DNA of 64,000 nt from an uncultured Verrucomicrobiae bacterium (GTDB taxonomy: Bacteria; Chlamydiota; Chlamydiia; Chlamydiales; Rhabdochlamydiaceae), in contig CAVSUE010000001.1 in the NCBI GenBank assembly GCA_963731265.1, positions 1,216,001 to 1,280,000 on the forward strand, written 5' to 3'. Below are positions 19,092 to 22,320 of the stretch, in pieces. The first letter of the stretch is position 1. Each line of letters begins with the position of its first letter. A model generated the notes under the pieces. The model had not been told where the DNA came from. It made no database searches and saw only the letters and a list, made by a program, of their open reading frames with translations. The position numbers were made by a program, and so were the translations under genes.

Positions 19092-21626
19092 ATGCCTGAA
19101 AAGAAAAAAAAATCGATTAAAGCCAAGACAAAAAAAGAACCCTACCGCGCGCAGGAAGGTTTTGTGAATTCGGACGCTGCGAAGCAAAGCAAAATCAAAC
19201 CGAAGCGTTCCGAACGAGCGAAACCATTGATGAAGAGCAAGGCTGCGAGTCAGGTTGACTCTCGCAGTGTAAAGCAGGTAGACCGCAGCGAACCTGGGAC
19301 AAAGAAGGAGCGATTTGGCAAAGCCGCAGCCAGTCCAAATTCACAAAACATGACTGAGCGCAGGATAAAAGTTCCAAAACTGCCTTCTAGAAAAGTGAAG
19401 GCAGACCCTAAAAAGGCCGTCCCACCTCCCCCCAAACCATCTTCCAAGCAACCCCTGCCCAAACTATCTTCCAAGCAAATGCGCCTTGCCGACAATCTGT
19501 CGAAATCCATTTTGCAATTCATGACGGGCAAACGGTACAAACCGATGAAAGAAGCGGAATTGCTGGAAAGGCTGCATCTTCCTCCACAGCTCTGGGACAC
19601 CTCTTCAAAAATTATTGGAGAGTTGATTGAATCGGGCGAGATCCAAGTCATTAAGAACTTGCTGACTCTGGAGCAGGAAAAAGAGGAGATCATCAGCGGA
19701 GTTGTTCGCATGCACGTTAAGGGGTTCGGCTTCGTCATTCCAGATAACCCAAGCCTAAGTCCACAGGATATCTTTATCCCGAAACATTTAACTGACAATG
19801 CCATCGATGGGGACCATGTAGAAGTCGCCTTGAATTTGGAAGCGACTTCCGATAAAGGTCCGGAAGGACGCATTGTCGCCGTCTTGAAGCGCGCCAGAAA
19901 ACATCTTGCGGGGACCATCCGTCAAGTCAATGCCAATGGCGACCTCATGGCCTATGTTCCAATTCTTGGCATGAACAGGCCGGTTATCGTCTCGGCACCG
20001 ACCGCCCATGTGGTTAACGTCGGTGATCGCGTGATTCTCAACGTCGTCGAATGGGGGACAGAAAGAGAACCCACGACAACCGAACTTTCCTACGTGATCG
20101 GCAATATCGCGGACGCATCTTGTGACATCACTGCGGCAATTGAGGAATTCGATTTGCGTTCCTCCTTTCCCAAAACGGTCGTTGCTCAAGCGAAAGCTTA
20201 CGGAAAAAAAGTGCCGGCTAAAGACCTTAAAAAACGGCTTAACCTCTCTAAAGAAGAATGTTTCACGATTGATCCAGACACGGCCAGGGATTTTGACGAT
20301 GCGGTTTCTCTGACCAAAGATAAAAAGGGACACTTCCATTTAGGTGTCCATATCGCTGACGTCGCCCATTACGTGAGTCCAGACAGCCCTTTGGACAAAG
20401 AGGCGGTGCAACGCGCTAATTCGACATATTTCCCTGGCTCTTGTATTCCAATGCTCCCTGAAGAGCTTTCCAATGAATTGTGCAGTCTAAAACCCGATGA
20501 AAATCGGCTTACCGTTTCCGTATTGATGGACTTTGACAAGAACGGCACCCTTTTAAAACAAGAAGTGGTCAGATCCTACATCAAGAGCAAAAAACGTTTT
20601 ACCTATTTTGAAGCTAAAGACGTCCTCGATGGTAAAATGAAAAGCCCACACCTTAAAACGCTGAAATTGATGGTTGAATTGTGCCAGCTACTTAAGAAAA
20701 AGAGGTATGAAAGGGGCAGTATCGATTTTGCCTTGCCCGAGATGGTTATCATCACCGATGAGAAAGGGCAGCCCCAAGGACTGAAAAAGATAGAGTACGA
20801 TATCACTCACCAGCTCGTCGAAGAGTTCATGTTGAAGGCCAACGAAACCGTCGCCCTGGAATTAAACAAGCGGGGAAAACGGCTCATTTACCGCGTTCAC
20901 GAAGTTCCCCAAGAAGAAAATTTTGAAGATTTTCTTCAATTTGCACGCACTTTGGGCTTAAAAGTCCCTGTCAAACCGACTTCCCAGGATTTGCAAGGCC
21001 TCTTCGAAGAAGCAAAAAAAGGCACGTTTTTCCAACAGCTTTCCGTGGCGTTCATCCGCAGCATGCGCCTTGCCCAATATTCACCTGAAAATGTCGGCCA
21101 CTTCGGCCTTGCGCTTGAACACTATTGCCATTTCACCAGCCCCATCCGCCGCTATAGTGATCTGATCATCGAACGGCTTTTGTTCAATGAAGAGCCCGAA
21201 GACATTGATCTCGTCAAGATTGCCCAGCATTGCTCTGATCAGGAAAGGGTGAGTTTCCGCGCTGAAATGAGCGTGAAAACCCTGAAAAAACTGCGTTTGC
21301 TGCATCGCTATTACGCAGAAGATCCCCAGCGAGAGTACAAAGCGGTTGTCACCAAAATCAAGGCTTTCGGCCTCTTCTTTGAGCTTCAAGAGCTCATGCT
21401 CGAAGGATTTCTCCACATTTCGGAACTCGAAGACGATTATTTCTGCTTCGACGAGGTGCGGAATGTTCTCTATGGAAGAAGTTCTGGAAAAACGCATAAG
21501 CTCGGCGAACCGATCAAAGTCCGCCTGGCGCGCATCGATCTCGTTCAGTTGGAAAGCAACTGGAGCTTGATCTCGGATATGCCGAGAAGATCCAAGCCCT
21601 CTTTCTTCAGATCCAAAAAGCGGTGA
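19092..21626 (+). CDS. rnr: Ribonuclease R with Lys-rich N-terminal extension
   Basis: GFGFV, TIDPxxAxDFDDA, HFTSPIRRYSDL motifs; C-terminal S1 domain. Confidence 0.97.
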   Translation: MPEKKKKSIKAKTKKEPYRAQEGFVNSDAAKQSKIKPKRSERAKPLMKSKAASQVDSRSVKQVDRSEPGTKKERFGKAAASPNSQNMTERRIKVPKLPSRKVKADPKKAVPPPPKPSSKQPLPKLSSKQMRLADNLSKSILQFMTGKRYKPMKEAELLERLHLPPQLWDTSSKIIGELIESGEIQVIKNLLTLEQEKEEIISGVVRMHVKGFGFVIPDNPSLSPQDIFIPKHLTDNAIDGDHVEVALNLEATSDKGPEGRIVAVLKRARKHLAGTIRQVNANGDLMAYVPILGMNRPVIVSAPTAHVVNVGDRVILNVVEWGTEREPTTTELSYVIGNIADASCDITAAIEEFDLRSSFPKTVVAQAKAYGKKVPAKDLKKRLNLSKEECFTIDPDTARDFDDAVSLTKDKKGHFHLGVHIADVAHYVSPDSPLDKEAVQRANSTYFPGSCIPMLPEELSNELCSLKPDENRLTVSVLMDFDKNGTLLKQEVVRSYIKSKKRFTYFEAKDVLDGKMKSPHLKTLKLMVELCQLLKKKRYERGSIDFALPEMVIITDEKGQPQGLKKIEYDITHQLVEEFMLKANETVALELNKRGKRLIYRVHEVPQEENFEDFLQFARTLGLKVPVKPTSQDLQGLFEEAKKGTFFQQLSVAFIRSMRLAQYSPENVGHFGLALEHYCHFTSPIRRYSDLIIERLLFNEEPEDIDLVKIAQHCSDQERVSFRAEMSVKTLKKLRLLHRYYAEDPQREYKAVVTKIKAFGLFFELQELMLEGFLHISELEDDYFCFDEVRNVLYGRSSGKTHKLGEPIKVRLARIDLVQLESNWSLISDMPRRSKPSFFRSKKR
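19137..19374. repeat. Family J palindromic element inserted in frame in rnr
   Basis: GAAC..GCGCGCAG..GTTTTGTGAATTCGGAC pairs with GTCCAAATTCACAAAAC..CTGAGCGC..GTTC; central hairpin. Confidence 0.8.
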
Positions 21627-21735
21627 ACCCAGGCCTTAAGGCCTGGGATTAAGTTGGGGCCGAGCTTCGTACTCGGCCCAACATTGTTTTTGAAAATACC
21701 CGGCCCTTAAGGGCCCGGTTTCCGCCGGAGGACGG
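21623..21735 (+). mobile_element. Family C element (113 bp)
   Basis: Near-identical to reverse complement of 15554-15665. Confidence 0.88.
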
Positions 21736-22320
21736 ATGAAGATTGTTCCTTTAAGTTTCTACCAACACGATGACATCGTCCTTATTGCCAAACAGCTGAT
21801 TGGAAAACAGCTTTTTTCCGAGATAGGCAATGTGCTCACAGGAGGGATCATCACTGAGACAGAGGCGTATCGAGGAGCTGAGGACAAAGCTTGCCACGCC
21901 TTTAATCACCGGCGCACTCCGCGAACTGAGGTGATGTTTCGCGATGGTGGGATCGCCTATGTCTATCTTTGTTATGGGATGCACAACATGCTCAACGTCG
22001 TCACAGCGGGCCCGGAAACGCCCCATGCGGTTTTAATCCGGGCCATTTTGCCCACCCATGGCATAGATACAATGTTATGCCGAAGAAAAAAACAGCAAAT
22101 CGATAGGTCGTTAACCAGTGGTCCAGGCTCTGTTTGCCAAGCTCTCGGCATCACTCGCAGCCATAATGGCCTTTCGCTGCAAGGTCATCCCCTTTGGATT
22201 GAAGAAGCCATTTCTCCAATTGACCCCCCGAAAATCGTTGCCGGGCCCCGGATCGGCGTCGAATATGCAGACGAACATGCTCTGCTACCTTGGCGCTTTA
22301 TTCTTGAAAAGTGCCCGTGA
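21736..22320 (+). CDS. mpg: 3-methyladenine DNA glycosylase (AAG/MPG type)
   Basis: ETEAY, YVYLCYGMH, AVLIRA, GPG, PRIG motifs. Confidence 0.93.
   Translation: MKIVPLSFYQHDDIVLIAKQLIGKQLFSEIGNVLTGGIITETEAYRGAEDKACHAFNHRRTPRTEVMFRDGGIAYVYLCYGMHNMLNVVTAGPETPHAVLIRAILPTHGIDTMLCRRKKQQIDRSLTSGPGSVCQALGITRSHNGLSLQGHPLWIEEAISPIDPPKIVAGPRIGVEYADEHALLPWRFILEKCP

Follow-up and report, generated by a model that had tools for sequence, protein, structure and literature searches.

How can a piece of mobile DNA enter a junction at which two genes share four bases and leave both proteins as they were? The spacer between rnr and mpg raises this question in the stretch of DNA analyzed here, 64,000 nucleotides (nt) from an uncultured bacterium of the Rhabdochlamydiaceae (hereafter the window; positions 1,216,001 to 1,280,000 of contig CAVSUE010000001.1, assembly GCA_963731265.1). 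The spacer is very probably a 113-base-pair (bp) non-autonomous element related to insertion sequences (IS) of the IS200/IS605 type—i.e., a palindrome-associated transposable element (PATE) or, loosely, a MITE (miniature inverted-repeat transposable element)—that inserts 3′ of TTCAT. It is an insertion at an ATGAA target that leaves both proteins unchanged, belongs to a repeated family enriched at gene starts and junctions, and has ends that modestly resemble those of an IS carrying tnpA and tnpB. The junction comprises the following parts:

19092–21626, plus strand: rnr, encoding RNase R (844 amino acids); its last codon CGG (21621–23) and stop codon TGA (21624–26) straddle the left boundary of the insert.
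21623–21735 (21622–21734 being equally good), plus strand: the inserted 113-bp non-autonomous element, a member of a repeated family, skipped in a contig of run X1.
21736–22320, plus strand: mpg, encoding a methylpurine-DNA glycosylase (194 amino acids), with its start codon ATG at 21736.

Profile searches identified RNase R by its RNB domain (357 bits) together with CSD2, OB_RNB and S1 domains, and the methylpurine-DNA glycosylase at 215 bits, with positions 2–180 of the Pfam profile matched from residue 8. Read along the genes, rnr ends in AAG (21618–20), CGG and TGA, and the mpg start codon is preceded by GGAGGA (21727–32) and CGG (21733–35). A preliminary description of this locus had proposed that removal of positions 21623–21735 (113 bases) yields AAG CGA TGA AG, and reading the letters of the window confirmed this. 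Both proteins are indeed unaltered by the insertion: the final rnr codon changes from CGA to CGG (arginine in either case), the TGA is restored, and the ATG of mpg is the host's own.

That the target was an ATGA overlap of stop and start codon is supported directly, as the contig of run X1, a related species' metagenome contig (L109) and the closest genome compared (G002) all show such an overlap between rnr and mpg. The X1 contig (3335 bases, ~95% identical to the window) joins positions 21200–21621 to 21735–22200 without interruption, skipping 113 bases, with 18 differences over 422 aligned bases on one side and 30 over 466 on the other. The joint can be moved by one base, 21622–21734 fitting as well as 21623–21735; read against the window, it is AAAAAGC|GATGAAGATT, that is, AAG CGA TGA with an overlapping ATG. 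The L109 contig, obtained from a metagenome scan with Mpg that returned no near-identical relative (best match, 71% identical), reads AAAAAACGATGAAGAAT at the junction, and its stretch CGATGAAGA represents an empty site at the same rnr-mpg position; compared with the window, the C-terminus of its RNase R is 84% and its Mpg 71% identical. G002 reads TTTCGATGACC, and two further genomes (G021 and G035) likewise have the ATGA overlap. Among runs X2, X19 and X20, no contig bridged the junction in its empty form; X19 carries the filled form over 229 bases, X20 ends at 21547, and a contig of X2 contains the element as a tandem copy.

The rnr-mpg pair is conserved among the relatives compared. Element-free relatives with a different spacer, which would speak against an ancestral ATGA overlap, were absent from the nearest relatives; some more distant ones have non-ATGA spacers. 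Elsewhere in the genus, these measure 1 nt (G004), 5 nt (G005), 12 nt (G010) and 14 or 35 nt (G015); the spacer is also 1 nt in G028, and that of a genome from another family (G027) is ~91 nt long and unrelated to the element. The rnr and mpg reading frames overlap further than ATGA in G024 and G039. As a side observation, the mpg beside rnr in G017 (L044, C1:504673-507894) is a C-terminal fragment only, with residues 118–190 matching, and appears to be decaying.

The element is one of many in the genome to which the window belongs (G000; Rhabdochlamydiaceae-like, 2.34 Mb on two contigs, C1 and C2, 46% G+C). BLAST of the region against this genome returned 51 matches, 41 spanning the whole unit and 10 partial. 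The 41 full copies are 92–98% identical, and two more divergent copies reach 75–77%. When copies were aligned together with their flanks, similarity extended from [G/A]TGAA to GGAGGACGG-ATGAA, and these motifs set the boundaries for all counts of insert length, ends and flanks: the insert measures 113 bp in 21/41 copies and 111–115 bp in 18 more, and the right flank is ATGAA in 36/41 (ATAAA in two; GTAAA, ATGTG and, in a tandem pair, GTGAA in one each). Beyond this genome, BLAST detected the family in 12/41 genomes (counting the window's own), including 9/18 others in the genus and 2/6 in sister genera, with more than 20 matches each in G013 and G024; it was not found by BLAST in 16 genomes from other families of the order. 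Matching public assemblies are labelled Rhabdochlamydiaceae or Candidatus Rhabdochlamydia, and some Verrucomicrobia or Chlamydiae.

Within the window, the element and its target resolve into a series of signals on the gene strand:

21623–21627, plus strand: GTGAA, the distal end of the element (TTCAC on the other strand), which supplies the TGA of rnr; the empty site has A in place of G.
21628–21647, plus strand: hairpin 1 (CCCAGGCC TTAA GGCCTGGG), in transposon terms that of the right end, resembling the IS end AATCCCTCGCTTTAGGCGAGGG.
21654–21682, plus strand: middle hairpin (TTGGGGCCGAG CTTCGTA CTCGGCCCAA), followed by TTGTTTTT at 21684–21691; terminator-like.
21699–21718, plus strand: hairpin 3 (CCCGGCCC TTAA GGGCCCGG; family consensus GGGCCGGG), the left-end hairpin, resembling the tnpA-adjacent hairpin of the resident IS and of the IS in G002.
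21727–21732, plus strand: GGAGGA, an element-borne Shine-Dalgarno-like motif of putative function, 3 nt before the ATG of mpg.
21736–21740, plus strand: host target motif ATGAA, read as TTCAT on the opposite strand, containing the mpg start codon and the rnr TGA from before the insertion; present in empty sites.

A 141-nt region folds into the three hairpins with a z-score of −3.9, none of 200 shuffled sequences folding as well. Such folding, together with the 41 full copies in the genome, argues that the rnr-mpg stretch is not a product of chance. In an alignment of 11 copies from nine genomes (A1), the middle hairpin showed double changes in five of seven pairs with its CTTCG loop conserved, two pairs of hairpin 1 carried a compensatory change (in G024), and hairpin 3, at the Shine-Dalgarno end, was nearly invariant. 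Between subfamilies, the stem of the middle hairpin (A1 columns 44–64, window positions 21656–21679) is swapped wholesale while the CTTCG loop is kept. The strong fold and the constant position before genes would also be expected of a host regulatory module, such as a leader, a riboswitch or a conserved intergenic RNA, rather than mobile DNA. This explanation is barely credible, however, as the empty sites already contradict it: at one and the same junction, the element is present in some close relatives and absent from others. Moreover, its copies lie beside unrelated genes, one of them inside an IS and others in tandem arrays, and a scan of positions 21000–22400 against Rfam 15 at E≤1 gave no match within the element (21618–21741), the one unrelated match (19 bits) falling inside mpg.

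A search of G000 for Y1 transposases gave two hits, both within copies of an IS that has divergent tnpA and tnpB genes. Its tnpA matches the IS200/IS605 model NF033573 (148 and 96 bits in the two copies) and its tnpB matches NF040570 (312 bits). The copies are:

G000 C1:926433-929798: IS copy (L045) carrying the small element on its tnpA start codon.
G000 C1:314405-317770: IS copy (L046) with a tnpA start lacking the element.

These two provide an empty/filled pair within one genome, as the tnpA start of the second copy reads GCCT-ATGAA-AAAGTCAATGG, and the first carries the element exactly there. A further encounter with an IS was seen on a contig of another assembly (L103), where the ATGAA of the element is followed by the right end of a tnpB-bearing IS (ATGAAGCAAGAATCCCTCGC...); in that genome, the element appears to have inserted at an ATGAA within the end of the IS.

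The ends of IS and element resemble each other to a modest degree. Read in the sense of tnpB, the IS begins TTTAT|CCACTAGACGCGAGAAAAC-hairpin (TTTAT|CC...AAAC-hairpin) and ends GAATCCC-hairpin-GGAGGTTCAAA (AATCCC-hairpin-GGTTCAAA), and the lower strand of the element begins TTCAT|CCGTCCTCCGGCGGAAAC-hairpin (TTCAT|CC...AAAC-hairpin) and ends TTAATCCC-hairpin-GGGTTCAC (AATCCC-hairpin-GGGTTCAC). These motifs—TT[C/T]AT|CC..AAAC-hairpin at one end, AATCCC-hairpin-GGTTCA at the other—are colinear and nearly identically spaced, and local alignments of the two pairs of ends scored above 496 and 497 of 500 shuffles; the target motif and the stems differ. An intact version of the IS is found in G002, its tnpA encoding HVH and the RQYIE tyrosine, and the hairpin of that IS (CTCGGCCC-TGAA-GGGCCGAG) has a CGGCCC/GGGCCG core in common with hairpin 3 of the element (CCCGGCCC-TTAA-GGGCCGGG).

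The mechanistic model for this class is IS608 of Helicobacter pylori, which inserts 3′ of a short motif that is paired with four bases 5′ of the left-end hairpin. At the corresponding position, the IS has AAAA (target TTAT) and the element GGAA (target TCAT). By analogy, the change from AAAA to GGAA would be a single T:A to C:G switch and would fit the IS608 pairing rule, in a comparison that comprises two element types only.

Movement would be explained as follows. The element lacks a gene, terminal inverted repeats and a target duplication and has a hairpin near either end; it would be moved as single-stranded DNA by a Y1 (HUH) TnpA. On the strand opposite the genes, it lies directly 3′ of TTCAT and ends in TTCAC, the presumed 3′ cleavage-site motif. 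On the coding strand, this amounts to landing right before ATGAA, typically the start of a Met-Lys or Met-Asn sequence and, in ATGA overlaps, also the site of the upstream gene's TGA. The far end, GTGAA, provides a new in-frame TGA for the upstream gene at the price of a third-base change from A to G that is usually silent (here CGA to CGG), and the near end sets GGAGGA 3 nt before the untouched host ATG. Because the cleavage motif TTCAC nearly repeats the target TTCAT, the coding information that the upstream gene drew from the target is restored, and the reappearance of TGA calls for no special explanation.

The same ends can be viewed in another way. Nearly every copy is bounded by TGAA on either side, and its size and the number of copies are as usual for a MITE; a classical MITE mobilised by a DDE transposase, with TGAA duplicated as a 4-bp target, would account for both. 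We nevertheless consider this quite improbable. Neither of the two ends, GTGAACCCAGG and TTCATCCGTCC, is an inverted copy of the other, there being instead a hairpin near each end (21628–47 and 21699–718). The left TGAA is preceded by G in filled sites and by A in empty ones (...CG|ATGAA... and GCCT|ATGAA), contrary to a target duplication. Across the family, the left 5-mer is GTGAA in 31/41 copies, ATGAA in 8/41, and ATGAT and CTGAA in 1/41 each, with A as the left base in all three GAGTTTCG-variant copies and in the two divergent ones; the choice between G and A thus follows subfamily, as would be expected if this base were part of the element and not of a duplicated target. Finally, the ends resemble those of the tnpA/tnpB IS (the transposase search covered Y1_Tnp only).

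A second alternative would stay within the Y1 superfamily. The element is palindromic, G+C-rich, multi-copy and extragenic, as are repetitive extragenic palindromic (REP) sequences and REPINs, which are spread by domesticated REP-associated tyrosine transposases (RAYTs); RAYTs are themselves Y1 transposases. Against such an origin, which we rate as highly improbable, both Y1 genes found match the IS200 model at the scores given above, and REP_Tyr_transpos matches just one of them, at 19 bits against a cut-off of 80. These genes also lie in an IS with tnpB and without flanking inverted REPs, and the element forms a 113-bp unit of three hairpins whose pentanucleotide target is fixed.

Several observations weigh against assigning the element to the IS200/IS605 type, or against details of its insertion. 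Both tnpA genes of G000 look damaged: one encodes HVQ in place of HVH and has an early frameshift, the other contains an internal double frameshift. Judged by their sequence, both transposases look dead; the tnpA with HVQ and the early frameshift is the one in the IS copy that carries the element on its start codon. The target used by the resident IS is TTTAT, and the resemblance of its ends to those of the element is modest. A search of G000, G002, G003, G004, G013 and G024 revealed no autonomous element that shares these ends and targets TTCAT, and the element-rich G013 and G024 gave no Y1 transposase hit, G013 being only 64% complete. With replication strands assigned by GC skew (origin near 0, terminus near 1.04 Mb), the orientation of copies agreed weakly with that expected for this type, namely with the active strand on the lagging-strand template (21/33 on contig C1), a figure confounded by selection on gene orientation. 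The direct TGAA repeat at both ends also fits a 4-bp duplication if the G is a later change, and the middle hairpin with its T-run is terminator-like. Lastly, the A at the X1 joint is taken from the alignment, in which the contig letters are not printed and nine differences are unlisted.

The preliminary description also called for a genome-wide count of similar cases. We scored a flanking ATG as opening an open reading frame (ORF) if the latter comprised at least 60 codons, and the element's TGA as closing a frame if this had been open for at least 60 codons. By this measure, the flanking ATG opens an ORF in 25/41 copies and the TGA closes one in 18/41, with both holding for 15/41, which share the two-gene arrangement seen at rnr-mpg. 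Among all 8001 ATGAA sites in G000, a background that takes in the sites beside the copies themselves, 26.4% open a frame, 6.5% close one and 2.1% do both (binomial tail P = 3e-6, 2e-11 and 3e-15, respectively). Pfam domains were present in 18 of the 22 flanking ORFs tested. In several, a Rossmann-type domain begins at residues 3–7, leaving no space for an alternative start. The junction pairs include two ABC-3 permeases, glutamine synthetase and a cytidylyltransferase, MarC and a pseudouridine synthase, and a solute-binding protein and a small ORF. At 47 loci in other genomes, found with a 39-base pattern and with flanks limited to 300 bases, 30 open a frame, 16 close one and 12 do both (12 of the 47 lack a recognisable left end).

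Excising each copy in silico revealed no interrupted genes, only frames explained by start/stop junctions. We infer that copies would have accumulated at starts and junctions mostly through loss of insertions elsewhere in genes, a simpler assumption than target choice. A large spanning frame at C1:1305207 was rejected as a candidate, as it stemmed from a 1-nt boundary offset; the copy there marks another two-gene junction. A pyridine-nucleotide disulphide oxidoreductase gene (G000 C1:360010-361623; L009, L014) has copies both at its start codon and at the junction of its stop with the next gene.

What does the insertion mean for expression of mpg? The 3′ end of the 16S rRNA carries CCTCC, with which GGAGGA, 3 nt before the ATG, can pair. 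It is reasonable to suppose from these letters that GGAGGA would act as a ribosome-binding site and that mpg would no longer be coupled to rnr, as the preliminary description had it. Partial polarity is a live alternative to so clean a switch from coupling to independent initiation. The element would then be the same but not neutral in expression: the middle hairpin and its T-run would terminate or attenuate transcription and lower downstream expression at operon junctions. IS200 carries an end hairpin that stops incoming transcription. Consistent with this, a terminator-like site was flagged at 21657–21679 on the plus (gene) strand and another at the 21702–21715 hairpin on the minus strand, compensatory changes preserve the middle stem, and the subfamilies have the T-run in common. 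On the other side, the T-run starts 4–5 nt past the stem and hence does not make a canonical terminator, a sequence scan found no promoter-like site in or near the element, and 15/41 copies lie between apparently co-transcribed genes, housekeeping pairs included, which argues for tolerance. On balance, we regard such a polar effect as possible yet unlikely. The third hairpin goes beyond what the transposon model needs and might act as a terminator, as an RNA element or as a site for the transposase.

Extending the IS200/IS605-type assignment, the family may be built to be neutral to coding: the TTCAT target would lead it to ATGAA starts and A-TGA-A stops, where it restores a TGA together with a synonymous codon and supplies a ribosome-binding site at a fixed distance. 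We put this forward tentatively, at somewhat short of even chances. If true, the element could colonise even 4-base overlaps in a compact intracellular genome with no protein altered, a safe-haven strategy so far undescribed for IS200/IS605-type elements, and a side effect would be that translationally coupled pairs are repeatedly made independently initiated.

PATEs, the non-autonomous derivatives of IS200/IS605, have reportedly been described in haloarchaea. In Geobacillus stearothermophilus, according to the accessible part of one account, IS605-type elements with TTCAT and TTTAT target-adjacent motifs coexist with gene-less PATE-like elements (PMC10055086). As portrayed in that part of the text, PATEs share with the element described here their short length, the lack of genes and terminal inverted repeats, end hairpins resembling, modestly in the present case, those of a tnpA-bearing IS, and insertion next to a short motif that is fixed (PMC10055086). 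They differ in that the target here is complementary to the context of a start codon, with copies concentrated on start codons and ATGA overlaps, and in that the left end bears a Shine-Dalgarno-like GGAGGA, a third, covarying hairpin lies inside, and no partner IS with identical ends was found. The TTCAT of ISGst5 (IscB) equals the motif of the element, and the TTTAT of ISGst2 (TnpB2) that of the resident tnpA/tnpB IS, a comparison confined to the motifs; the Geobacillus elements come from another phylum, and start codons go unmentioned in the accessible part of that account (PMC10055086).

Other repeats at gene starts invite comparison as well. Chunjie, a MITE from Geobacter uraniireducens, is said to have inserted in an operon whose structure was left undisturbed. 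Reviews, in their accessible parts, cover classical MITEs such as Chunjie and the REP2 repeats of Neisseria (PMC3184786, PMC10969869). Chunjie is given there 21-bp terminal inverted repeats and 9-bp direct repeats, which, unlike the ends described here, place it in another transposition class (PMC3184786). Neisseria REP2 repeats and similar Borrelia repeats are described as lying directly upstream of genes and carrying a ribosome-binding site, a promoter and an ATG (PMC3184786, accessible part). The element, with its putative ribosome-binding site directly upstream of a gene, resembles them in this respect; it differs in that the ATG belongs to the host, that a promoter-like site was not found, and that its mobility and target are defined. 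The accessible part of a Rhabdochlamydiaceae genome paper discusses IS expansion and is free of the words MITE, IS200 and palindrom- (PMC9723776). The literature searched, which did not cover most subscription journals, contained no such element in Chlamydiota and no start-codon-seeking PATE or gene-less IS200/IS605 derivative on start codons. The element is a new variant within a known class, notable for its clean fit to gene junctions.

It provides a clean natural example, open to counting, of how mobile DNA gets into the tightest junctions between genes with proteins unchanged (15/41 copies, and a similar share in other genomes), and suggests as a general rule that TTCAT-targeting IS200/IS605-type elements would land on ATGAA start codons. 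Natural pairs of one junction with and without the element, such as the window and the X1 contig, offer a means to measure what translational coupling contributes. For annotation, start codons beside these repeats are genuine, and the ~113-bp 'intergenic' regions in these chlamydial genomes are insertions.

The window holds two further copies:

15549–15665, minus strand: second full copy, GTGAA ... GGACGG ATGAA, placed where a minus-strand ORF of 247 codons begins.
31965–32055, plus strand: truncated copy without hairpin 1, ending in GGACGATGAA, followed by ATGAAAAAC.

The truncated copy (window 31965–32060) has lost one G before ATGAA, and a second ATGAA adjoins (GACGATGAAATGAAAAAC). Elsewhere in the genome (G000 C2:65344-65572), two copies lie head to tail and share one GTGAA, as they do on the contig of run X2; the element can thus insert at the end of another copy, with TTCAC in place of TTCAT. 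Downstream of mpg, tandem DUF502 genes (22355–23020 and 23017–23676) overlap by ATGA, with the sequence CCCATGAAAAAA at window positions 23017–23021, and so present a vacant ATGAA target like the one at the ancestral rnr-mpg junction; ATGAA also begins the upstream member of the two (window 22355–22359).

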